Both the position numbers and the translations under genes were made by a program. This document shows, in pieces, positions 1 to 11,535 of a stretch of DNA of 11,755 bases. Numbering within the stretch: position 1 is the first letter of the stretch; every line of letters starts with the position of its first letter. The notes under the pieces were generated by a model, which saw nothing but the letters and a program-made list of their open reading frames with translations, was not told where the DNA came from and searched no databases. Source of the DNA: a virus; UHGV virus genome UHGV-0258651. One strand, written 5' to 3'.

Positions 1-182
1 CCAGTGAGCATATTGCGCCGCTTCAGGATGCTGCAGATCTGGAAATTGCAACGGAGGAAGAAATCTCGTTGCTGGAAGCATGGAAAAAGTATCGGGTATT
101 GCTGAACCGTGTTGATACATCAAGTGCACCGGATATTGAGTGGCCTGCTTCCCCAGTGGAATCAAGGAGTAAACAAGCATAA
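1..182 (+). CDS. tail fiber assembly protein, C-terminal fragment (5' end lies outside window)
   Basis: Frame 3 is open from the window edge and translates to ...[47 protein letters not shown], with stop TAA at 180-182. The [21 protein letters not shown] tail matches the conserved C-terminus of lambda Tfa / P2 gpG-type proteins as I recall it; not searched. Confidence 0.7.
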
Positions 183-215
183 GGCTTTCATTTCAAACCA
201 TTGTAGTCCAGTTTT

Positions 216-1454
216 TTGTATAGTACCCTGCTCATTTCGAATGACATGAGTGATTTGGAATTTCAGGGTGCCATTATGAATGTTATTTCATCATTAAAAC
301 AGCTTAACAGACAGCGAAATATTAAAACAAAAAAGATAAAGACGAAGGCCAGACTGGCATTTCTAAAAATGCGATACAGAAGGAAAACATCATTACAGCC
401 GGATAGTTATAAAACAGTGTGCATTTTCATGCACATGCAGGCCATTGGTGACGGCATCGTTACCTCAGGGTTTATTAAACAACTTCAAGAATCCGGCATG
501 GTGGTATATGTGATAGCACCTCCAAGAGTATCATTCCTCTTTACTGATATTGTTGGCGTGGATGCCTTTATTTCTTACGAGAAAAATAAATTTAACGAAC
601 TAAAAGCAAAGATAAAAAAACTGAATGTAGATCTTGTTGTTGACTTCTCAAATTTTGATAACACAGCGATAACCAGATTGCAAACACTACATTTACTTAA
701 ACCTAAACACTCTATCTGTTTTAATCATCCTGCCGTAACTATTTTTGATACAAATATAACCGATAATCGTTCCATTCACTCATCTGAAAGAATGAAAAAA
801 GTTTTATCTTTACTAAAGATAAAAAATAATGATTACGCTGCAGCGCTTAATTTTGACAACAAAATATATGAACCAGCAAATATTGTTGCAAATGAATTCA
901 GGAAGAAAAACAAAAAATTAGTTATATTTAACCCTTATGGCTCTCAGAATAGCAGAACCTTGTCTGATGAACAGATAAACAAAGTACTAGCTTACCTTAA
1001 CAACCTTAAGGGATATCACACAATAGTTTTTAACATGGGAAAACAGATTAATCACAATGGATTGGATAATGTGTCTCTATCTCCATTTTCTGATGCAGGA
1101 TGTTCATTTGCATTGGTTCGCCATGCTGATTTTGTTATAACTGTAGATACTGCTATTGTACATTTAGCCAGTGCATTAAACATTAGACAATACTGTATAT
1201 ATAATAACAGAATGCATGAAGGAAAATTCGAAAATAATATAGTGTGGGGGCCAAACAGCAAATTAGCGACTCAACTCACCACATCCGAACATCTAAGGTC
1301 TGAAGGGGGCGACGATATGCATAAATTCGACATAATGCTTTTAATTAATGCTATCAAACAAGATTTGACAAACGATATACCGAATTACCACTCGGATTTA
1401 GGTTGTAAAAATAGCTCCAGAAACCCAGAATTAGAAAGTAGCAAATCTTTATAA
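216..1454 (+). CDS. glycosyltransferase family 9 (heptosyltransferase-like) protein, AT-rich moron; true start uncertain
   Basis: 412-aa ORF from the track. It has an N-proximal KTVCIFMHMQAIGDGIVTSGFIKQL segment and a C-terminal VITVDTAIVHLASALNIRQYCIY segment, resembling the GT9 (WaaC/WaaF-type) signatures. Strongly AT-rich compared with the neighbouring tail genes. The track start at 216 is a TTG; in-frame ATGs at 246, 276 and 369 are alternative starts, and no convincing SD precedes any of them. Confidence 0.55.
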   Translation: MYSTLLISNDMSDLEFQGAIMNVISSLKQLNRQRNIKTKKIKTKARLAFLKMRYRRKTSLQPDSYKTVCIFMHMQAIGDGIVTSGFIKQLQESGMVVYVIAPPRVSFLFTDIVGVDAFISYEKNKFNELKAKIKKLNVDLVVDFSNFDNTAITRLQTLHLLKPKHSICFNHPAVTIFDTNITDNRSIHSSERMKKVLSLLKIKNNDYAAALNFDNKIYEPANIVANEFRKKNKKLVIFNPYGSQNSRTLSDEQINKVLAYLNNLKGYHTIVFNMGKQINHNGLDNVSLSPFSDAGCSFALVRHADFVITVDTAIVHLASALNIRQYCIYNNRMHEGKFENNIVWGPNSKLATQLTTSEHLRSEGGDDMHKFDIMLLINAIKQDLTNDIPNYHSDLGCKNSSRNPELESSKSL

Positions 1455-1507
1455 CGTAGAAACCTCAACTGTTTTATCAGGACCTACGATATATTATATA
1501 ACAACAA

Positions 1508-1541
1508 GCCGCCCATTACCCAATATGAGGGTATTGGCGGC
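1508..1541. other. imperfect stem-loop between convergent GT9-like gene and gpU
   Basis: gccgcccattaccc / aatatga / gggtattggcggc forms a roughly 13-bp stem with one bulge. It lies between the stop of the + gene (1454) and the stop of the - gene (1551). No clean T-run on either side, so its role as a terminator is uncertain. Confidence 0.3.
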
Positions 1542-1550
1542 AATATAAAA

Positions 1551-2045
1551 TCAGAACAGCCCTTTAACTGAACTGGCCGCGCTGTTAAGAGATGATGTCA
1601 CCTTATCTTTGAAGCCGGACAACATATCGCTGAACGATGAGGATTGCAGGCGCTCCCGCAAATCCTCATCACAGCGTTCAAGAGTCAGTGAAAATTCTAT
1701 CTTTTTCGCCTTACCGTAGCGATCAAACTCGGAACGGGTCGTATTCGTTTCAGTCAGCACATACATGCCGTAAATCTGCCCGACACCATCAATCAGAGGC
1801 CAGGGGCGTCCTGTATACGCCTGCGTGGTCAGCAGCGACAGGGACACTTCGCCACCTGTAATTTCAGGATAAAGCACACCAGAAAGAACGATGCGATCAT
1901 CACCTGCACCGATATACTGCCAGCTTGCTGAACGGTTAACGCGTTCATTTTTCACATGCCGCCAGCTTTTGTTTTGCTGTAACTGTTGATGCGGCAATGT
2001 ACGCAGCTCAAAAACAAACATGCCATAGATCATCATCATGGCCAT
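1551..2045 (-). CDS. U: phage tail protein gpU (P2 gpU family)
   Basis: 164-aa ORF; MMMIYGMFVFELRTLPHQ...WRH...YPEITGGEVSL...WPLIDGVGQIYG pattern fits the P2 gpU family, and it sits immediately downstream of the tape measure gene. The GGAG SD is 8 nt upstream of the third ATG (2039), so the true start is probably 2039 or 2036. Confidence 0.8.
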   Translation of the reverse strand: MAMMMIYGMFVFELRTLPHQQLQQNKSWRHVKNERVNRSASWQYIGAGDDRIVLSGVLYPEITGGEVSLSLLTTQAYTGRPWPLIDGVGQIYGMYVLTETNTTRSEFDRYGKAKKIEFSLTLERCDEDLRERLQSSSFSDMLSGFKDKVTSSLNSAASSVKGLF

Positions 2046-2051
2046 GACTCC

Positions 2052-4895
2052 TCAATCTTTATCGTAAAAACTGCCACGTCCGGCACGGGCGCGCCGTTCC
2101 ATCTCTGCCCTGACCATTTCGCCGACCAGTTTCGCCAGTTCGCGGGGATTCTGTGTAACAACGTTATGCAGATGAACATGAATTTCACCACCAAATCCGG
2201 AGGCAACAGACTCCCGGTTACGGGAAGTTACAGGAACTGATGCCACTGGAGATCGTATAGCCTCCGCCACCGGGCGGGAGCTGGCCGCAACAACAGGGAC
2301 CAGCGCCGGAGGCAGCGGAGCCGGGACCACGGGTGTGATATTAATTGCGGGGGCAGGCTTACTGACCTGCGCAATCTTCCGCTCCTGCCACTCCCCACGA
2401 ACAGCAAGTGCTCGGGGCAGGTTTTTAAAGACAATATCGCCGGGGCCAATGCGTTTTTTCGTCTCCTCAACCAGCTTACCTGTGTTATCAGCAATTTTGC
2501 TGAGTCTGCGCAGCGTACCGGTATTGCTGTCTGTGAGCGGTTTATTGTCTTTGGGGTTATCACCTCCGGTGCCATTGCCATTTTCCACAGGCTTCGGCGG
2601 ATTGATTTTCGCCAGGTCCCCCTGAAGCAAGGCAACCTTGTCCTGAAGAATGGCCGCACGCTGTGCGTCTTCGATTTTCTTGCGCGCCCTTTCCGCTTCA
2701 TCCGGAAGCACACCAAGCTTTTCAAGTATCCACGCCAGCGTATCCAGCAACATTTTTGCAGGTGTCAGAACAAGTTGTAACGCACCGCCAAGAACGTTAC
2801 CGAATATCTCGCCAGCACTGGTACATTTATCCAGAGTTTCCTTGCTGGACTCCATCGGTGACAGCAGCGATTTAAACCAGTTAAACACCTGGCTGATCCC
2901 ACTCCCGATTGCGTCAAAAACAGGACCAAACCGTTCAAAGGTTTCGCGCAACGGGGTCAGCCTTTCCATAATCCCGCTGAACACCCCGGCAAAAAATGCC
3001 CTGATGGGATCCCAGTATTTCCAGATAAGAACGGCAGCTCCGGCAAGCGCAGCCACGATAAGACCAACCGGACTGAACAGCGCCCCGATAGCGCCTCCCA
3101 GTAAAGAAACGGAACCCGTCACCATTCCCCATAGTGCTGGCAGAACCCTGACAGCATTCATTGATCCGGTCAGGAGGGAAAAACCAAGACGCAGTTTTGC
3201 CAGCGGGCCAGCAAGCACACCAATAGCCAGCGACAACGAGCCAACCGTTGCAGTCATTGCCAGCAGTGCACCGCCTGCAATCAGTAGCTGGCGCGTCAGT
3301 GCGGGATGGGCCTGCGCCAGCGCCGTCACCTTTGATACCACACGCGTGAGCCACTGCGTGACAGAACGCAGCGGACCGTCAATCAGATCTGCAATGCGGA
3401 TGCGCAACCCTTCCCATGCACTGCCGAGTGATTTCAGATCGCCGTCAAGGTTGTTGGCCATAACCTTTGCTGTGCGTTCAGCCTCACCGCGTGCGCCTTC
3501 AAGTTCTTTTCTCAGTTTAGGTAAGGAACCGTCACCCGCTGCATCAACGAGCGCCATAAACGATGTGAAAGCCTCTTCTCCGGCAATGTCCTTAAAGAAC
3601 GATACCCGGTCAACTTCCCCGTATTTGCGGGTGGCTTTATAAAGGTCGGCCAGCACATTCTCCATCGGGCGCATTTTGCCGTTCGCGTCAGAGACTGCCA
3701 CACCAAGCTCTTTCAGCGCCTCTGCTGCCGCCTTTGGCGGTGATGCCAGACGAGCCAGGCTGGCACGCATTGCCGTCCCGGCATCACTTCCCCTGATACC
3801 CATATTCGCCAGCACGCCCGCCATCGCTGCGGCCTGCTCCAGCGATATTCCCAGCTTGCCCGCCACCGGACCTGCATATTTCATGGTTTCGCCCAGTGCG
3901 CGAAGGTCAGTGTTGGTACGGGTAAACGCTGCGGTGAGCGTGTCACCGACCCGGTCCATCTGGTCGGCAGAAAGGCCGAACTGCGTCAGGATGTTTGAGC
4001 CAATATCCGCCGTCTCGCCGAGATCCATACCGCCAGCCGTTGCCATGCTCAGCACACCGGGAAGCGCAGCCTGAATGGCCTGTGGTGTGAAGCCAGCCAT
4101 TGCAAGAAATGCCTGCCCACTGGCGGCATCGCCTGCGGCGAACTGCGTTTCAGAGCCAAGTTTTAACGCCTGCTCACGCAGCGCCTTAAACTGCGGGCTG
4201 TTTTTGTCGATTCGCGTCAGTGCCTGAACGCGGGACATCTCTTTCCCGAACCCGATCGCAGGCTGCAAAAAACGCCCGGCAGCATAGCCGCCAGCCGCTG
4301 CCGCACCAATTGCCAGCGCACCACCTGTTTTCAGTTTTCCTGCTGTTTCCTGCGCGCGCGAATACCGCTCACGCGCCCGCGTTACACGCGCAAGCGCCTG
4401 CCGTTCGCGTTCAAGCTGGTTGTTGTACTGTTCGGTGCGTCTGATGGCCTGCTGGATGGTGTTATCGCTGCCTGTCAGGGAAATGCCGTGGCGTTTCAGC
4501 TCTCCGCCAAGTTCCCGCATTTTCTGAATTTCCCGTGTGCGCGATTCATTCAGGCGTTCAAGCCGGGTGCTTAACTGCTGCATCAGCTTTTGTTGTTTTT
4601 CGCTGAGCACTGTACCCGTGCGTTGTAACTGATTAAGGGCGTTAAGCTGGCGTCGTGCTTTCACGATGCCCGCATCCGCTTTACTGACAGCGTCACGGGC
4701 GCGCTCAAATGAACGCGCCTGACGCTCGAGATTTTTGATCGCCCCCTGCGTTCGCTGGATGGAGTCACCAAACTGCCCCATCAGGCGGCGGGCGTTTTCG
4801 GCAGGCCGGGTCAGCCTGTCAACGGCGCTGAAAGCGACCCGGATATCAAGAGTCTTCATTGTCTGCATTCCCGCTGCGAAGTGCCGCCCGCTCAC
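2052..4895 (-). CDS. T: tail tape measure protein (P2 gpT-like)
   Basis: 947-aa ORF, coiled-coil/Ala-Gly-rich with central hydrophobic segments (GGALAIGAAAAGGYAAG...), located between E/E' and U as in P2. The track start at 4895 is GTG; in-frame ATGs at 4868 and 4859 are more likely starts. The E' extension overlaps this start. Confidence 0.85.
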   Translation of the reverse strand: MSGRHFAAGMQTMKTLDIRVAFSAVDRLTRPAENARRLMGQFGDSIQRTQGAIKNLERQARSFERARDAVSKADAGIVKARRQLNALNQLQRTGTVLSEKQQKLMQQLSTRLERLNESRTREIQKMRELGGELKRHGISLTGSDNTIQQAIRRTEQYNNQLERERQALARVTRARERYSRAQETAGKLKTGGALAIGAAAAGGYAAGRFLQPAIGFGKEMSRVQALTRIDKNSPQFKALREQALKLGSETQFAAGDAASGQAFLAMAGFTPQAIQAALPGVLSMATAGGMDLGETADIGSNILTQFGLSADQMDRVGDTLTAAFTRTNTDLRALGETMKYAGPVAGKLGISLEQAAAMAGVLANMGIRGSDAGTAMRASLARLASPPKAAAEALKELGVAVSDANGKMRPMENVLADLYKATRKYGEVDRVSFFKDIAGEEAFTSFMALVDAAGDGSLPKLRKELEGARGEAERTAKVMANNLDGDLKSLGSAWEGLRIRIADLIDGPLRSVTQWLTRVVSKVTALAQAHPALTRQLLIAGGALLAMTATVGSLSLAIGVLAGPLAKLRLGFSLLTGSMNAVRVLPALWGMVTGSVSLLGGAIGALFSPVGLIVAALAGAAVLIWKYWDPIRAFFAGVFSGIMERLTPLRETFERFGPVFDAIGSGISQVFNWFKSLLSPMESSKETLDKCTSAGEIFGNVLGGALQLVLTPAKMLLDTLAWILEKLGVLPDEAERARKKIEDAQRAAILQDKVALLQGDLAKINPPKPVENGNGTGGDNPKDNKPLTDSNTGTLRRLSKIADNTGKLVEETKKRIGPGDIVFKNLPRALAVRGEWQERKIAQVSKPAPAINITPVVPAPLPPALVPVVAASSRPVAEAIRSPVASVPVTSRNRESVASGFGGEIHVHLHNVVTQNPRELAKLVGEMVRAEMERRARAGRGSFYDKD

Positions 4896-5375
4896 GCCAG
4901 CTAACCACTTCGCCGGGCGTCATCATGAAGATTTCGGCGGGCGACCAGTTAAAAATGGCGGCAATATCCGCCACAAAGTCTTCTATGTGCTCAAAGCACA
5001 CAACCGTGATCAGGCTTCCGTCGCCTGTTCGTTCTTCCCGCCAGAGTCCGCACCGCTCAAAAAATTTACGGCAACCACACATAACTGAATAAAGTCACGG
5101 GATGCCATTTTTTTGATCGTCACTTCATCCAGTCGCGGTGATGTCACGCGTGACAGCAGCGTAAACATGGATTCCGCTTTCAAATTCAGCACATCAGACA
5201 GCGACAAATCTCGCAGAGATCCAGCCTGCTCAATAGCTCCGGTGATCTCCACATACGTGATTTTTTCGCCGCCTCGCTCAATTGGTTGGGTAAGTTTTAC
5301 GCCACGCTCACTGGTTTCTTTCACAGTGTCAGTAACTACCGTGTTTTCGGTATCGATGTTTTTCGTCTCTTTCAT
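4846..5375 (-). CDS. tail assembly chaperone E+E' (programmed -1 frameshift fusion product)
   Basis: E frame (5375..5010) and the overlapping -1 frame ORF (5082..4846) are joined at slippery heptamer T_TTT_TTG (minus strand, 5064..5058), which is in the correct phase of the E frame. After the shift the reading continues ERCGLWREERTGDG... to a stop at 4846. Same arrangement as P2 E/E' and lambda G/GT. Confidence 0.75.
5010..5375 (-). CDS. E: tail assembly chaperone gpE (unshifted product)
   Basis: 121-aa ORF directly downstream of FII on the minus strand, with AAGGAG SD 7 nt upstream of ATG at 5375. Contains the slippery site near its 3' end. Confidence 0.8.
   Translation of the reverse strand: MKETKNIDTENTVVTDTVKETSERGVKLTQPIERGGEKITYVEITGAIEQAGSLRDLSLSDVLNLKAESMFTLLSRVTSPRLDEVTIKKMASRDFIQLCVVAVNFLSGADSGGKNEQATEA
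5058..5064 (-). other. -1 ribosomal frameshift slippery heptamer TTTTTTG
   Basis: Plus strand 5058-5064 is caaaaaa, which is T TTT TTG on the minus strand. Zero-frame codons TTT and TTG were verified by stepping codons back from the E stop codon at 5012..5010. Confidence 0.75.
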
Positions 5376-5429
5376 CAGGAAACTCCTTTCAGTCAGAGGC
5401 GACGCACTGCGCCGCCTGCATATTACTTA

Positions 5430-5942
5430 TCAGCCAAGCCCGAGCGCGGAACGGATGCGATCGGGCACAATGTCCTTGCCGTCCTTCCGGTAAATGAAGT
5501 TCAGCAGGTCAATCTCCCACAACGGGCGATCGTTAACACTCAGCTTGTAGTAGGTGTTTTTAATGGCGTAAGTGTGTGATGTGGCTTCGCCCTGTTTGGC
5601 TTCCCCCATATCAATTTCCGTCACACGTCCGCGCATTTCGACTTCATACAGGTCGCTTTCTGCATCGGTGTAGTATTCACCCGCAAAACGCAGCAGCGTG
5701 CCGTCAATCGTGCCGCCATACTTAAGGAACAGCTCACGAACTGCGCCCCCCATGACAAAGCTCGCATCAAGCGCGGAGTCGTCCAGACCGAGATCAATAC
5801 TTACCGCTCCCATCATGCCACCACCCCGGTAGCTGTCGGTTTTGCGCGTCAGCTTAGGCAGAGTGACGGACGTCACCTTACCCACTTCGTTTTCACCATC
5901 CACAAACAGCGTAAAAAAGCGAAGATGTTTTGGTACAGCCAT
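5430..5942 (-). CDS. FII: tail tube protein (P2 gpFII-like)
   Basis: 170-aa ORF (P2 FII is about 172 aa) immediately downstream of the sheath gene. Its start ATG overlaps the FI stop (TGATG at 5944..5940), indicating translational coupling; GGGAGG SD upstream. Confidence 0.9.
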   Translation of the reverse strand: MAVPKHLRFFTLFVDGENEVGKVTSVTLPKLTRKTDSYRGGGMMGAVSIDLGLDDSALDASFVMGGAVRELFLKYGGTIDGTLLRFAGEYYTDAESDLYEVEMRGRVTEIDMGEAKQGEATSHTYAIKNTYYKLSVNDRPLWEIDLLNFIYRKDGKDIVPDRIRSALGLG

Positions 5943-7126
5943 CAGGCACCTCCCAGCACCGCAAATGCGGGACCAAAGAATTCATCAGTAAACGACTGGT
6001 AAAGCTCCATGTCTTCCAGCGGGGGAACAGGCGTATATTTGTAGCGAATACGCACGCGCCCCTGACGTAAATTCGTGGTGCCGTTATCCACCACGTCATA
6101 CCAGCACGACGCCCCAATCAGTTTCCCGGCAGTAACCAGTGAATCCAGTTTTGCCCTGATAGCACTGATAACATCCTTCACGTTCGCAGGCGTCAGTGGA
6201 CTGTCGATGGTTTCAAACTGCGCTTCCGCAATTGAATCAGCCAGCACCTGTGCGGTTCGGGTATACACCTCAAAGATGTAGGCGTTCGTTTCCGGTGTGC
6301 GGTTGCCCCAGAAGCGGAACCCGTTGCGACGAATAATGGTCGTGATTTCTTTGTTGTTGAGGCTGTTGGCATCACTGTCTTCGGCCTGCAACGACCAGAA
6401 CACATGCCTGGACATCCCCAGCACATTTTTAACCGGAACGTTGGACAGCGATTTGTGCCAGCCCTGCTCATGGTCAATGTACGCACGAAGGCCGCACGCA
6501 TAGGCAGGCGCGGGGAACGTTTCGTTTTTGCCACTTTTCGGGTTGTAGGCGATGAAGTCCGGCCATAAGAGCATCACCTCACGTTCGTTGAATTTCTGGC
6601 GGTAGGTAATTGCCTCAGCCATCGTGTTACAGTCATGACATGAGGCATACACAAACGCGCGCAGTTTACCCGCAATCACGCACAGGGATTTTGTCACCGC
6701 CTCCGTGTCCAGCTCCGGCGCGGCCAGAATACGCGGACGGTATCCGATGCTTTCATCCTGCTCTGCAACAAGCAGCGCATACATCCCCGTATAGCTGCCG
6801 TCATCCTCAGAACCACCGATAACCAGTTGATCCTGCGTCTTACCGCCTTCTTCTTTGTGTTCAGCCACGCGAACGACGATCACTTTTGTGCTCACCTGGT
6901 CTGCGATAGCCTTAAGCGCACGATAAAGCGTCCCCGTAGTCCCGCATTTTCCCAGCACGTCATTGACGCGGGTCAGCAGTGTGGGCTTGTTCAGCGGGAA
7001 CAGCTCCGCATCCGCATCATCCGCCGTTGCCACGATACCGATAACGCTGGAATCAACATCATTAATCGCTGTTACCAGGTCGGTACTTTCCGTGACACGG
7101 GCACCATGAAAACGAGTTTCACTCAT
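5942..7126 (-). CDS. FI: contractile tail sheath protein (P2 gpFI-like)
   Basis: 394-aa ORF (P2 FI is about 396 aa), sheath-like sequence, AAGGGG SD about 8 nt upstream of ATG at 7126. Followed by tube, chaperone and tape measure genes in canonical order. Confidence 0.9.
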   Translation of the reverse strand: MSETRFHGARVTESTDLVTAINDVDSSVIGIVATADDADAELFPLNKPTLLTRVNDVLGKCGTTGTLYRALKAIADQVSTKVIVVRVAEHKEEGGKTQDQLVIGGSEDDGSYTGMYALLVAEQDESIGYRPRILAAPELDTEAVTKSLCVIAGKLRAFVYASCHDCNTMAEAITYRQKFNEREVMLLWPDFIAYNPKSGKNETFPAPAYACGLRAYIDHEQGWHKSLSNVPVKNVLGMSRHVFWSLQAEDSDANSLNNKEITTIIRRNGFRFWGNRTPETNAYIFEVYTRTAQVLADSIAEAQFETIDSPLTPANVKDVISAIRAKLDSLVTAGKLIGASCWYDVVDNGTTNLRQGRVRIRYKYTPVPPLEDMELYQSFTDEFFGPAFAVLGGA

Positions 7127-7282
7127 AGCTTCAGCCCCTTGTATCCGTTAAATGATTCGGCAACAATCATCACCCACCACGCGCGTAATCTCACCCCTGC
7201 GCCGTTCTCCCGCCACGGCGACAACAAAAAGCAGTAACCCACTCCGCACGCACATGCGACCATGCCGCACAGGGAGGGAAAG

Positions 7283-8392
7283 ATGACCAACACCACCATG
7301 CAATTGCTCAGTCAGGGCACAGACCCCGTGAAAATGCCGGATTTTGATATTCTCGCGGAGGGGGAAACGCTGTCCGGCGTGGCAGAGCGCCTGATGAGTC
7401 TGTCACTGACCGACAACCGGGGATTTGAAGCGGACCAGCTCACCATCACGCTGGATGATGCGGATGGTCAGTTGCAGCTACCGCCACGGGGCGCGCGCCT
7501 GACGGTTCTCATTGGCTGGAAAGGCGAACCGCTGACAGAAAAAGGCACTTACATTGTTGATGAAATCGCTCACGAAGGACCGCCGGACAGGCTGACGGTT
7601 TCAGCCAGAAGCGCAGATTTTCGGGATGAATTTAACGTTAAACGTGAGGTGTCCTGGCATGATGTGACCGTTGAGCGAGTGGTATCCGCCATCGCTCATC
7701 GGTACGGTCTGAAACCGCAAATCAGCGAAATGCTGATGGACATCGAAATCGACCACGCCGACCAGACCGAAGAAAGTGACATGTCCTTCCTTACGCGCAT
7801 GGCGGAAATGCTGGGCGCAATCACCACGGTAAAAAGCGGCAATCTGTTATTCATCATGCCAGGTGGTGGCGTGAACGCACAGGGCCAGCCGTTGCCCTCG
7901 TTCGCCATTACACGCAGCAGCGGCGATCGCCATCAGTTCCGCATTGCTGACCGCGAGGCGTATACGGGGGTACGCGCCTACTGGCTTGATCTTAATTACG
8001 GGAAAAAGAAAAAAGTCAGCGTGAAACGCCGCAAACCGCCAAAACCCAAAAAGGAGAAAAGCAGCAGCCGTGAAGGTGATTATATGGAAGGCGCGGAAGG
8101 CAATGTGTTTGTGTTACGCAAGACTTATCAGAACGAGCAGGCAGCAAGACGCGCAGCGGCGGCAAAGTGGCAGCAGCTACAACGCGGAGCCGCATCATTC
8201 TCCATCACGCTGGCGCGTGGACGTGCAGAACTCTACCCCGAAATGCATGGCACGGTAACAGGATTTAAAAGCGAGATTGATAATCAGGACTGGATCATTG
8301 CAAAAGCCGAGCACACCATTGATAACAGCGGCTTTACCACGCAGCTTGAGCTTGAGGCAAAAATCCCGGAATGGATAGCGGAAACAGAGTGA
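7283..8392 (+). CDS. D: tail protein gpD (P2 late control gene D family)
   Basis: The ORF track starts at 7262, but a strong SD (GGGAGGG, 7272-7278) precedes the in-frame ATG at 7283 (MTNTTMQLL...). Product of about 370 aa with gpD-like sequence (LTITLDDADGQL..., C-terminal ...FTTQLELEAKIPEWI), and ogr follows directly as in P2. Confidence 0.8.
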   Translation: MTNTTMQLLSQGTDPVKMPDFDILAEGETLSGVAERLMSLSLTDNRGFEADQLTITLDDADGQLQLPPRGARLTVLIGWKGEPLTEKGTYIVDEIAHEGPPDRLTVSARSADFRDEFNVKREVSWHDVTVERVVSAIAHRYGLKPQISEMLMDIEIDHADQTEESDMSFLTRMAEMLGAITTVKSGNLLFIMPGGGVNAQGQPLPSFAITRSSGDRHQFRIADREAYTGVRAYWLDLNYGKKKKVSVKRRKPPKPKKEKSSSREGDYMEGAEGNVFVLRKTYQNEQAARRAAAAKWQQLQRGAASFSITLARGRAELYPEMHGTVTGFKSEIDNQDWIIAKAEHTIDNSGFTTQLELEAKIPEWIAETE

Positions 8393-8434
8393 GCAACTTA
8401 GAATAGCGGCAGCACCACGTTAAGGGAGGTCGCT

Positions 8435-8695
8435 ATGTTCCGTTGTCCGCTTTGTGGCGCATCTGCCCGTATCCGCACCAGTCGTCCGGAAAATGATTCA
8501 AACACTGTGCGACAAAAGTATTACCAGTGTAACAATCTGGAATGCGGCGTATGCTTCTCAACACTGGAAGCTTTCCATAAATTCACATCAAAACACGCCT
8601 CCGGCGTTCACTCTTCAGAAGGTATCCCGTGGCATGATCTGCCAGCTTCACACAGGGGAAACAATCAGATGAGTTTGCCTTTATCTCAGAATTAA
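8435..8695 (+). CDS. ogr: Ogr/Delta-family zinc-finger late transcription activator
   Basis: 86-aa ORF starting MFRCPLCGASARIRTSR...YYQCNNLECGVCF, a C-x2-C...C-x4-C zinc finger closely matching P2 Ogr (MFHCPLCQHAAHARTSR...). AAGGGAGG SD upstream; positioned immediately after D. Confidence 0.85.
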   Translation: MFRCPLCGASARIRTSRPENDSNTVRQKYYQCNNLECGVCFSTLEAFHKFTSKHASGVHSSEGIPWHDLPASHRGNNQMSLPLSQN

Positions 8696-8886
8696 CAGGC
8701 AGAATTGCCGGAGTAACAAAAAAGCGATAGATTACGCGCGGGTGCCTTTCGGCTGATGGTCGGAGGGAATACCCGAAGGCCAGATGTGGAAAGGCCCCGG
8801 AAAACATTTCTGTTTAACCGAGGCCCTAACATATCTACCTTAAGCAAGTGATAGGTTAGCGCCTCTCCAACAAAGGAGCAAGCGCT

Positions 8887-9389: not shown

Positions 9390-9421
9390 AAGCGATGAAG
9401 CGATGAAGCGATGAAGCGATG
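9390..9421. repeat. tandem octamer repeat, 4 perfect copies of AAGCGATG
   Basis: aagcgatg x4 at 9390-9397, 9398-9405, 9406-9413 and 9414-9421, lying 98-129 nt upstream of the ATPase gene start. Confidence 0.95.
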
Positions 9422-9440
9422 AAACGTCTGTTTGGTTATA

Positions 9441-9485
9441 AACTTCACACTAATAATTTCTAAATGAAATTATTAGTGTGAAGTT
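9441..9485. promoter_or_regulatory. perfect palindrome (20-bp arms, 5-bp spacer), candidate operator or 5'-UTR structure of the ATPase gene
   Basis: AACTTCACACTAATAATTTC-taaat-GAAATTATTAGTGTGAAGTT; the arms are exact reverse complements. It ends 33 nt upstream of ATG 9519. The palindrome is certain; the regulatory role is inferred. Confidence 0.5.
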
Positions 9486-9518
9486 GATGTTTATTGTGAT
9501 TATAACTAAGGAATTAAA

Positions 9519-10988
9519 ATGAAATTATCTCCAGCAGAATTGAAGTTAGAAAGGGGTAAGGTTCAAGATAATAAATTCAATCAATATGTTAAACGTATCA
9601 CATTAAAAAATGTCAGAGGGTTTGATGAGGAAATTGTGGAGTTTAAAACACCAGTTACAGCTCTTATCGGGACTAATGGTGGAGGGAAGTCGACTATATT
9701 AGGTGCTGTAGCTCTCGCTTATAAAAATGTTAAGCCAAGCAAGTTTTTCCCTAAATCATTTTATGGGGATGATTCAATGAGTGATTGGGAAATTGGATTC
9801 GAATTGACTGACAAGCCTATTTCAAAAGATAAAAATATTAACAGGACTGCAAAATTTAAACAGATGAAATGGCGCAGAGATAATTTCCCAGAGCGAAATG
9901 TTGTATATGTAGAAATACAAAGAACTGTTCCTGCAGGCGAACTAACTAAGTTTAATAAATTTTTATCTGGCGATGCTAAACAATTTGAAGAAAAAAATCT
10001 CAACCCTGAGACAATAAAATATTGCTCTGCCGTTTTAGATAAAAAGATAGAAGATTACAGATGTATAATAAATAAGCACGATCCATCTTCAAGAATGTTT
10101 GTAGGTAAGGCAATTAATGGTTCTGGTTATTCTCAGTTCCATTTTGGTGCAGGTGAAGCATCAATAATAGATACTATTGATAGAATAGAGACTGCTGCTG
10201 ATAATTCTCTTGTTTTAATTGAAGAAATTGAAAATGGACTGCATCCTGTTGCAGTGCGGTTGTTTGTTAACTATTTGACAAATGTAGCAAAGAGGAAAAA
10301 GCTGCAAATAATATTTACAACACATTCGCAGGATGCAGTAAACGAGCTAGAGCCAGAAGCTGTTTGGGCTTCTATTAACAAAAAAGTATGGAATGGCAAA
10401 CTAAGTATTGAAAGTTTACGCGCTATAACGGGGCAGAAGATAAATTCGAAAGTTATATATGTTGAAGATTCTTTTGCAAAAGAGTGGGTTGAAAATGCGA
10501 TGGATCGATATATTCCAGAACTAGCCTCAACAATAAAAGTCTACACGGCAGGTGGTTACCCCAGCGTGGTTAAAGTAAGTCAATATCATAATGAGAACCC
10601 TACTATAAATTATCCATCAATCGCATTAGTTGATGGGGATATTAAAGGTAGACCCGGAACTAAAGATCTGCCTGATAATGCAATGTTCATCGGGGATGAT
10701 TATCCTGACGCTACGGTTTTTCATTATATTGCAAATAACATAGAAGAAAATGCCTCAGTTTTGAGGCAAAGATGTTTGTTAACAAGATTTGACGCTGAAA
10801 AGATTAAATCGGAAGTTGAGAGTGTGATGCATTCTGCATGTGATCACCATGTTTATTTTACTAGATTAAGTGATAAATTAGATTTTGCCTCAGAACTATT
10901 CATTCGGGCTGGTATGATAGATTTATTTAATGAGAAAAATCCAGAATTTTGGTCCCCAATTATGGACTTCATTAAAAAAGGTCTATAG
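9519..10988 (+). CDS. ABC-type (SMC/RecF/OLD-like) ATPase fused to a Toprim-like domain; candidate OLD/PARIS-like defence nuclease
   Basis: 489-aa ORF with AAGGA SD 6 nt upstream. Walker A GTNGGGKST (aa 51-59), Walker B/D-loop LVLIEEIENGLHP, H-loop IFTTHS. The C-terminal half has VIYVEDSF and IALVDGDIKG, acidic motifs typical of a Toprim fold. AT-rich, with its own upstream palindrome and downstream terminator. Confidence 0.6.
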   Translation: MKLSPAELKLERGKVQDNKFNQYVKRITLKNVRGFDEEIVEFKTPVTALIGTNGGGKSTILGAVALAYKNVKPSKFFPKSFYGDDSMSDWEIGFELTDKPISKDKNINRTAKFKQMKWRRDNFPERNVVYVEIQRTVPAGELTKFNKFLSGDAKQFEEKNLNPETIKYCSAVLDKKIEDYRCIINKHDPSSRMFVGKAINGSGYSQFHFGAGEASIIDTIDRIETAADNSLVLIEEIENGLHPVAVRLFVNYLTNVAKRKKLQIIFTTHSQDAVNELEPEAVWASINKKVWNGKLSIESLRAITGQKINSKVIYVEDSFAKEWVENAMDRYIPELASTIKVYTAGGYPSVVKVSQYHNENPTINYPSIALVDGDIKGRPGTKDLPDNAMFIGDDYPDATVFHYIANNIEENASVLRQRCLLTRFDAEKIKSEVESVMHSACDHHVYFTRLSDKLDFASELFIRAGMIDLFNEKNPEFWSPIMDFIKKGL

Positions 10989-11148: not shown

Positions 11149-11535
11149 TTGTCGATCAGACATTCGCACTATTCAATATCTTTTAGGCTCCGCAATGAAA
11201 ACGCCCCCGAAGGAACAATCCCCCGTCAATCGGTTGCCAAAGGCCATTTAGGTAAATCGCCTTCGAGGTCGTTCGATGGCTGCATGACGTTCCCGGTTAT
11301 CCCGTCAAAGAAAATGCACTCGACCGGAAAACCAGAAGAACTAATGGCGGAGTTGCTCAGGACTGCGAATAGTGGCGGAACAGTCCTTGATCCTTTTATG
11401 GGGCCAGGGACAACGGGTGTGGCTGCACTGAAAGCAGGGCGAAAATTTATTGGTATAGAAACCAGTGATCATTATTTTGAGGTAGCAGCGCAGCGGCTTC
11501 GGGGGACTATTACCACAACCATTTCAGCTACATAA
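11149..11535 (+). pseudogene. DNA methyltransferase (beta-class N6A/N4C type) 3' fragment, 5'-truncated
   Basis: The C-terminal roughly 75 aa of the 128-aa ORF read HSTGKPEELMAELLRTANSGGTVLDPFMGPGTTGVAALKAGRKFIGIETSDHYFEVAAQRL, the conserved end (H-x-T-x-KP ... DPF.G.GTT, motif I) of PF01555-type methylases. The catalytic DPPY motif and the preceding roughly 180 aa expected upstream are absent; the upstream sequence is AT-rich and non-coding. Confidence 0.5.
11221..11239. repeat. direct repeat copy B (CCCCGTCAATCGGTTGCCA)
   Basis: 19-nt perfect match to 9054-9072. It sits at the 5' junction of the methyltransferase remnant. Confidence 0.9.

Follow-up and report, generated by a model that had tools for sequence, protein, structure and literature searches.

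Gene content and composition of the locus

The window, i.e. an 11,755-nt stretch of DNA from the virus genome UHGV-0258651, is the right arm of an Escherichia coli prophage whose far end reaches the host gene raiA. Immediately after a tail fibre assembly gene (tfa), this arm carries an open reading frame (ORF) for a 392-residue WaaU-like glycosyltransferase of family 9 (GT9), located at 276..1454 on the + strand with the stop codon included, and this gene (hereafter the GT gene) is the subject of the present analysis. A GC content of 0.342 was observed over positions 183-1495 as compared to 0.545 over 1551-8695, with sliding values of 0.29-0.38 along the GT ORF and of 0.50-0.62 in the tail genes. 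The GC content of third codon positions (GC3) was 0.305 in the GT gene versus 0.577 in the tape-measure gene. Homology with sister prophages and phages restarted only at 1496-1548, indicating that the cargo spans approximately 183-1495. This AT-rich segment (183..1495), delimited by GC content and homology breakpoints, was specific to GT-carrying prophages, and the GT gene is foreign by composition. The initial annotation had described an ORF at 216..1454 (+ strand) as AT-rich and horizontally acquired; the frame exists, and the deviant GC and GC3 values together with the sharp breakpoints relative to sister phages bear out the proposed acquisition.

The start codon had been left uncertain between TTG 216 and ATG 246, 276 or 369. 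In an alignment of 30 family members, homologues begin at the position of ATG 276, which is also the start assigned by RefSeq and is preceded at a distance of 7 nt by AGGG. Residues N11, R12, N15, K19, K22 and R35, located just after this codon in a region with the motif LNRxRNIKTKKIK, were at least 90% conserved, and the 20 codons 5' of ATG 276 had no counterpart in most homologues. Thus ATG 276, one of the original candidates, is the best start, whilst the other three (i.e. TTG 216, ATG 246 and ATG 369) were discarded because of the family alignment; conserved residues would be lost with a start at 369 or 429. The matching PHROG profile begins at 429 (residue 72 of the TTG form) and leaves out the conserved N-terminus. 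With translation starting at ATG 276, the gap to the tfa stop codon is 93 bp and not the 33 bp initially given.

Gene order was compared with that of related phages. The tail region (1551-8700) exhibited 95-97% identity to phage P88, PhiR44_2 and other members of the Xuanwuvirus (Peduoviridae). Positions 1..182 (+ strand) are the 3' end of the tfa (gpG-like) gene, with the stop codon at 180-182 as annotated by RefSeq in locus L001 (99% identical), in agreement with the original placement of the GT gene after tfa; this tfa end was matched in tfa genes of 3072 of 5426 complete E. coli genomes. On the other side lies gpU (1551..2045, - strand; Pfam Phage_P2_GpU, E 5.5e-39), the first gene, as seen from the GT side, of a U-T-E-FII-FI block encoding gpU, tape measure, E/E', tube and sheath proteins (1551-7126, - strand). 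This block is inverted with respect to the P2 order, whilst gpD (7262-8392) and ogr (8435-8695) are on the + strand and divergent from the sheath gene (D plus ogr, 7262-8695). The inverted layout is standard for Xuanwuvirus and was seen in both P88 and PhiR44_2. The GT ORF and gpU therefore face each other with their 3' ends, and the statement that the GT ORF precedes the sheath operon was wrong, as the tail genes next to it are encoded on the minus strand. A local rearrangement of the FI-U block tied to the insertion was ruled out by this genus-wide layout, and no long inverted repeats flanking the block were found.

A variable cargo site between tfa and gpU

The interval between tfa and gpU differed between sister phages. 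This interval was empty in PhiR44_2, contained an alternative, invertible fibre/tfa segment with a DNA invertase in P88 and strain AR_0086, and encoded hexapeptide acyl/acetyltransferases in O157:H7 F6321 and strain 98208, confirming the suggestion that this is a variable accessory locus. The GT gene has the attributes of a moron, i.e. accessory cargo: a deviant composition, presence or absence at a fixed site in collinear phages and dispensability for the virion. Hexapeptide-repeat acetyltransferase genes were located (- strand) both in the E. coli tfa-gpU loci (L070 4291-4863; L071 4304-4849) and beside Providencia homologues of the GT gene (L004 9167-9733; L074 9146-9535). The O157 enzyme and the acetyltransferase neighbouring the P. 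alcalifaciens homologue were 40% identical (E 4e-40), suggesting a common pool of glycan-modifying cargo. Apart from fibre segments, the cargo of this interval was glycan-modifying and not intracellular defence in the few cases sampled; the GT protein matched 0 families among the PADLOC-DB defence models at E <=0.1.

Fold and catalytic residues of the GT protein

Assignment to GT9 was examined using sequence profiles, a predicted structure and active-site residues. A Pfam search for Glyco_transf_9 (PF01075), as had been advised, gave a match above threshold that was weak by sequence (E 3.6e-6; 26.9 bits versus a cut-off of 22) and covered only residues 225-332 of the 412-residue form, i.e. the C-terminal donor domain. 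Single-sequence and profile searches of PDB sequences produced chance matches or a marginal 45-residue match to WaaC (E 0.08), and the PHROGs match was to an unannotated family only; RefSeq names the product of the gene copies 'glycosyltransferase family 9 protein'. Sequence alone being insufficient, the protein was placed by a fold search and by comparison with WaaU. An AlphaFold2 model computed on the family alignment (mean predicted local distance difference test [pLDDT] score, 89.7; predicted template modelling score, 0.85) contained two Rossmann-like domains, preceded by a long helix at the N-terminus (residues 3-33) and followed by a tail of 25 disordered residues. The predicted structure has the GT-B two-Rossmann fold with solved GT9 enzymes as its nearest relatives, and structural comparison with WaaC and WaaF, another check that had been called for, strongly confirmed a GT9 fold. 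The protein is a divergent but genuine GT9 enzyme.

Residues of the active site were located by alignment to WaaC. G58-D59 (447..452, + strand) corresponds to G12-D13 of WaaC and is invariant in the family and in WaaU, WaaQ, WaaC and WaaF. The donor-binding motif D291-T292-A-I-V-H296 (1146..1163, + strand) corresponds to D261-T262...H266 of WaaC in HMMER and hhalign alignments. R227 (954..956, + strand), invariant in the family alignment, occupies the position of WaaC K192, where WaaU also has an Arg. D59, D291, T292 and H296 were invariant in the 30 family members as well as in all four K-12 enzymes. We take WaaC D13 to be the catalytic base, K192 a phosphate contact and D261/T262/H266 the donor motif. 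As these catalytic and donor residues are conserved and family-invariant, the GT protein looks catalytically competent and not like a pseudo-enzyme.

The two ends of the protein differed in conservation. Residues 3-33 (282..374, + strand; pLDDT 82-89) form the cationic helix, which contains the LNRxRNIKTKKIK motif and aligns with the N-terminus of WaaU; the first 40 residues include 14 K/R and zero D/E. A hidden Markov model (HMM) search of 1.84 billion representatives detected 118 proteins at E <=1e-30 and 755 at E <=1e-10, and most matches started at the first profile positions, indicating that the helix is a family trait. The lysine-rich N-terminus, which the initial annotation regarded as lacking family character, is therefore a conserved helix common to WaaU, and is presumed to be a membrane-interface anchor. 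The C-terminal 25 residues (368-392; 1377..1451, + strand) are disordered (pLDDT <50) and absent from most homologues, with only 3 of 29 homologues (i.e. P0002, P0003 and P0004) entering this region of the alignment.

A GT-B fold of the GT9-like type and a similar length are also found in TibC and AAH, raising the alternative of a protein O-heptosyltransferase (i.e. a bacterial autotransporter heptosyltransferase, BAHT) that acts on the tail fibre or a host adhesin. TibC has an iron-binding Cys motif, whereas the invariant cysteines for a TibC-type iron site were absent across the family alignment. The structural score of LPS (lipopolysaccharide) heptosyltransferases was 10 Z units above that of TibC and the Foldseek ranking agreed, whilst the extra length of the GT protein consists of the WaaU-type N-terminal helix and the disordered tail. 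As chromosomal homologues, moreover, lie among LPS core genes and not beside autotransporters, a BAHT is highly improbable.

Relationship to the WaaU branch

The closest relative among K-12 proteins was sought within the GT9 paralogues. BLASTP against K-12 WaaU (RfaK, b3623) gave 23% identity (E 4e-18) between residues 24-339 and 16-334 (316 residues). With hhalign, the match to WaaU had a probability of 99.4% and an E-value of 7e-22 over 307 columns, among them those of the cationic N-terminal helix, as compared to only 48 columns (E 1.5e-5) for WaaC. When homologous loci were searched by tblastn with marker proteins, including WaaC, WaaF, WaaQ and WaaU, WaaU was the best GT9 for most loci; in some Orbaceae and Vibrionaceae loci it was outscored by the Orbus GT9. 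The NCBIfam equivalogs for HepI and HepIII heptosyltransferases were far missed (TIGR02193, 22.8 bits versus 185.3; NF007742, 23.5 versus 467). Sequence comparison thus places the protein in the branch of WaaU (outer-core heptosyltransferase IV), the nearest of the four K-12 GT9 paralogues compared. WaaU attaches HepIV to GlcIII, the residue at which O-antigen is linked to the K-12 core (PMC13293308), and deletion of waaU exposes a terminal glucose usable by T4 as a receptor (PMC7414163).

Homologues with 39-55% identity were found in LPS loci. In Serratia marcescens, a 54%-identical homologue is embedded in the waa cluster (i.e. WaaL, GT9, WaaG, WaaP, WaaB, GT8, GT8, homologue, WaaA, CoaD). 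The Orbus sasakiae homologue adjoins two sulfatase-family genes, a family 2 glycosyltransferase (GT2) gene and a second GT9 gene; the sulfatase family includes EptA-type transferases. In Gilliamella, the clusters with homologues have abundant GT8 genes of the WaaJ/WaaO-like kind and a second WaaU-like gene, and the Citrobacter homologue has asmA on one side and an O-antigen-type cluster on the other. With WaaU as nearest K-12 paralogue and homologues in chromosomal waa/LPS clusters, the link to the LPS core made at first annotation was strengthened. The window copy, being prophage cargo, is not itself encoded in a waa core-biosynthesis cluster.

An active GT9 enzyme could alternatively use another acceptor (O-antigen, enterobacterial common antigen or capsule) or another donor (UDP-hexose or N-acetylhexosamine). 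The homologue that heads an O-antigen-type cluster outside waa points in this direction, as do the modest identity to WaaU (just 23%), the replacement by Arg of the Lys that contacts phosphate in WaaC and the distance from the heptosyltransferase equivalog cut-offs. The same Arg is, however, present in WaaU, and core genes surround the homologues of Serratia and Orbaceae. To our knowledge, characterised GT9 enzymes act on the LPS core, or on proteins in the case of BAHTs, with ADP-heptose. A different acceptor or donor is accordingly regarded as unlikely, although with a real chance of being correct.

One further homologue, in Symbiopectobacterium purcellii (L013 8001-9112), is ringed by transposase genes (IS21, IS630 and DDE). 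The longest ORF of this copy begins late (8153), so it may be a pseudogene.

Homologues in other prophages

Outside E. coli, homologues were also located in temperate phage genomes. In Pam3/E217-type myovirus prophages of Providencia stuartii, P. alcalifaciens and Providencia sp. PROV039, the homologue is directly 3' of the fibre gene, with or without tfa. A P. rettgeri prophage with a Mu-type baseplate has the order fibre, tfa, homologue, followed by GT2, DinI and integrase genes, and the partner of the Providencia prophage homologues is either a GT2 or a hexapeptide acetyltransferase; P. rettgeri also has an orphan chromosomal homologue with an adjacent hexapeptide protein. Post-fibre capture was therefore seen in no fewer than three temperate myovirus architectures that are unrelated to one another (i.e. 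P88/P2-type, Pam3/E217-type and Mu-like baseplate type). At E 1e-8, there were no cross-matches between the tfa proteins of the E. coli prophages and those of the Providencia prophages, so that the association is positional and not that of a shared cassette, and co-transfer with a particular tfa or fibre was rejected. An alignment of the regions upstream of seven homologues contained no conserved promoter or leader. The tfa mismatch and the unconserved upstream DNA therefore indicate repeated capture at the same kind of position and not travel with one fibre cassette. A conserved two-gene module of the GT and a GT2 is not claimed, the Orbus and P. rettgeri GT2 proteins being only 30% identical in the GT2 domain.

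Among 50,697 phage records, no copy of the gene was detected by megablast, and tblastn gave only two matches, with 23% identity over residues 24-339, to a distant WaaU-like ORF. Both matches were in 174-kb Campylobacter phage records (MG065691.1 142249-143205; MG065686.1 30918-31874).

A more speculative proposal, which we hold as possible but doubtful, is that WaaU-like core glycosyltransferases are a recurrent receptor-masking partner of tail-fibre modules and cap the LPS-core epitope bound by the phage's own fibres. Were this true, such enzymes would provide self-exclusion, protection of progeny and a cytoplasmic, core-level form of lysogenic conversion distinct from that of periplasmic Gtr/Oac systems.

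Distribution and maintenance of the GT gene

The 5426 complete E. coli genomes were examined for carriage of the GT gene. The gene was present in 49 (approximately 1%), with 98-99.8% identity, and carriers included clinical carbapenem-resistant isolates; gpU of this type was found in 1354. The 90% cluster of the GT protein has 536 members, and all members examined were from E. coli. GT-bearing prophages occupied three chromosomal sites, namely raiA (the window), near flk/fabB (L001) and near ihfA/pheT (L002). The L001 and L002 prophages (strains MB06101 and 165) have lost head and tail genes, yet the GT9 gene is intact. A comparison of the window and L002 copies detected 10 synonymous changes (245 sites) and 9 non-synonymous changes (934 sites), i.e. 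a pN/pS of approximately 0.24 based on small numbers.

These data bear on whether the gene is an inert passenger in E. coli, silenced or devoid of a cognate acceptor and retained through recent acquisition. Low prevalence (49/5426), very low GC content and the lack of a detectable promoter would fit such a passenger, and with copies differing by <=2% there has been little time for decay. Conversely, the low pN/pS, albeit from few substitutions, the intactness of the gene where neighbouring prophage genes were deleted or interrupted, its occurrence at three chromosomal sites and the 536-member cluster argue for maintenance, such that an inert passenger appears improbable.

The defective carriers contained internal deletions that join head to tail genes, a truncated gpD and insertion sequence (IS) elements (L001 12180-13401 and 21367-22220; L002 8312-9286 and 19358-20211).

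Expression

The region upstream of the GT gene is a 93-bp intergenic leader (183..275, + strand) that carries the AGGG and showed no conservation with the sequences preceding homologues. Neither a sigma-70-like nor a terminator-like site was matched in 183-275; as weak negative evidence, this would allow read-through transcription from the operon of the fibre genes. Expression could in that case be confined to the late phase, with a lytic role for the enzyme such as blunting the re-adsorption of progeny to debris. The GT gene is oriented like tfa and follows it after 93 bp with no promoter- or terminator-like site in between, and the post-fibre position recurs in other prophage types. Minutes of late expression would presumably not replace the LPS already on the surface, however, and the gene is intact in prophages that, having no head or tail genes, are unable to grow lytically. 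The P. rettgeri homologue has, in addition, its own hairpin and TATAAT-like box upstream. A purely late role is thus considered a poor prospect.

Proposed function in the lysogen

The prophage probably re-decorates the surface of the lysogen, which phages use as a receptor. We infer the donor, the acceptor, expression in the lysogen and the phenotype in the following scheme. A P88-like temperate phage would have acquired the GT9 gene from a low-GC gammaproteobacterial LPS locus. The cationic N-terminal helix would tether the enzyme to the cytoplasmic face of the inner membrane, where it may transfer a single sugar residue, probably L,D-heptose with host ADP-heptose as the donor, onto the outer core of nascent lipid A-core. 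The lysogen would then exhibit an altered outer core in which the LPS-core receptors of other phages, perhaps also of those whose fibres are of the prophage's own type, are masked or changed; the O-antigen attachment site may change too. With moderate confidence, we favour a cytoplasmic, membrane-associated GT9 enzyme of WaaU type that modifies the outer core of the lysogen and alters phage receptors, and possibly O-antigen ligation.

Several points weigh against this function. The GT gene is present in only 49 of the 1354 genomes with this prophage type. The lack of a promoter-like site means that expression of the gene may be limited to that of the late tail-fibre operon, in which case there would be no classical lysogenic conversion, and H-NS commonly silences AT-rich foreign DNA in E. 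coli. Identity to WaaU is only 23%, so that donor and acceptor are not confidently transferable; the annotation of WaaU is itself 'putative', and no characterised homologue exceeds 30% identity.

Many coliphages use the LPS outer core as a primary or secondary receptor, and O-antigen is attached to it. A mobile core-modifying enzyme could shift phage susceptibility, core typing by antibody or PCR, serum sensitivity and O-antigen ligation with no change in waa. As genome-based prediction of phage host range and in-silico core typing read only the waa cluster, both would miss a GT gene carried by a prophage.

Other features of the prophage arm

A GC-rich hairpin is present between the convergent GT and gpU genes (1508..1541; RNA fold of -26.9 kcal/mol for 1440-1560, z -3.6). 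This hairpin was common to the acetyltransferase prophages L070 and L071 but not found in P88 or PhiR44_2. Its T-rich tail is on the minus strand, indicating a probable terminator for gpU. At the other border of the cargo, Rfam IS009 (RF02111) matched above the gathering score (133.8 bits) at window positions 1-124 (+ strand), inside the 3' coding end of tfa. The matching tfa DNA was also found in tfaQ/tfaR of K-12 cryptic prophages, and the match is probably a coding-sequence resemblance rather than an independent RNA.

Additional cargo was detected at the opposite end of the prophage arm. A second AT-rich gene (9519-10988, + strand; GC 0.349), located after ogr, encodes a 489-residue AAA_15/AAA_21 ATPase that matched HEC-04, a candidate defence protein in PADLOC, over the full length (E 1.8e-203) and whose RefSeq homologue is named 'ATP-dependent nuclease'. 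This HEC-04-like gene sits in the hotspot that separates the attachment site from the D/ogr end of the prophage. Just upstream of its start codon are four consecutive units (9390-9421) of the 8-mer AAGCGATG, followed by an inverted repeat (9438-9488; 23 nt, 96% complementary, 5-nt loop); the array and inverted repeat could be an operator or a terminator. At the prophage/host junction beside raiA, an ORF (11149-11535, + strand) matched positions 160-221 of the 221-position N6_N4 DNA methylase profile. As only the C-terminal 60 residues of the profile were matched, this ORF is probably a truncated methyltransferase.

Comparison with known systems

Both phage-borne LPS modification and GT9 enzymes are already well known, and the GT9 label of this gene is already in databases. 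A literature search found no study of the gene or of prophage-borne WaaU/GT9 enzymes; one receptor paper on 'phage P2' concerns a different, newly isolated phage.

The GT protein resembles WaaU in its end-to-end homology, cationic N-terminal helix, GD motif, Arg at the WaaC K192 position and DTxxxH motif, as well as in a 'Y-N/P-N ... W-G/S-P-N' stretch, and both are encoded by AT-rich genes of outer-core type. It differs, beyond the low identity, in a conserved acidic 'E-x-GDD' insertion and the disordered tail, both absent from WaaU, and in being prophage-borne whereas WaaU is encoded in the waa operon. The resemblance to WaaC and WaaF (PDB 2H1F, 2GT1, 6DFE and 1PSW) and to a Veillonella GT9 (3TOV) is lower, with 12-15% identity and similarity confined to approximately 48 residues; WaaC and WaaF are without the N-terminal helix and act on the inner core (i.e. 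3-deoxy-D-manno-oct-2-ulosonic acid [Kdo]2-lipid A and HepI).

As for genomic position, the locus resembles Z/fun of P2 in carrying variable cargo immediately after the tail fibre assembly gene. The encoded protein is, however, unrelated, the locus here abuts the 3' end of gpU owing to the inverted FI-U block, and the Z/fun phenotype (i.e. T5 exclusion) is not implied for the GT gene. Like the GtrABC and Oac-type genes of P22, SfV and Sf6, the GT gene is a non-essential prophage moron by the tail-fibre/att end that is predicted to alter LPS and receptors. Gtr works in the periplasm with a sugar linked to undecaprenyl phosphate and a GT-C enzyme. Gtr and Oac modify the O-antigen, whereas the protein encoded in the window would be a single cytoplasmic GT-B enzyme with core-acting relatives.

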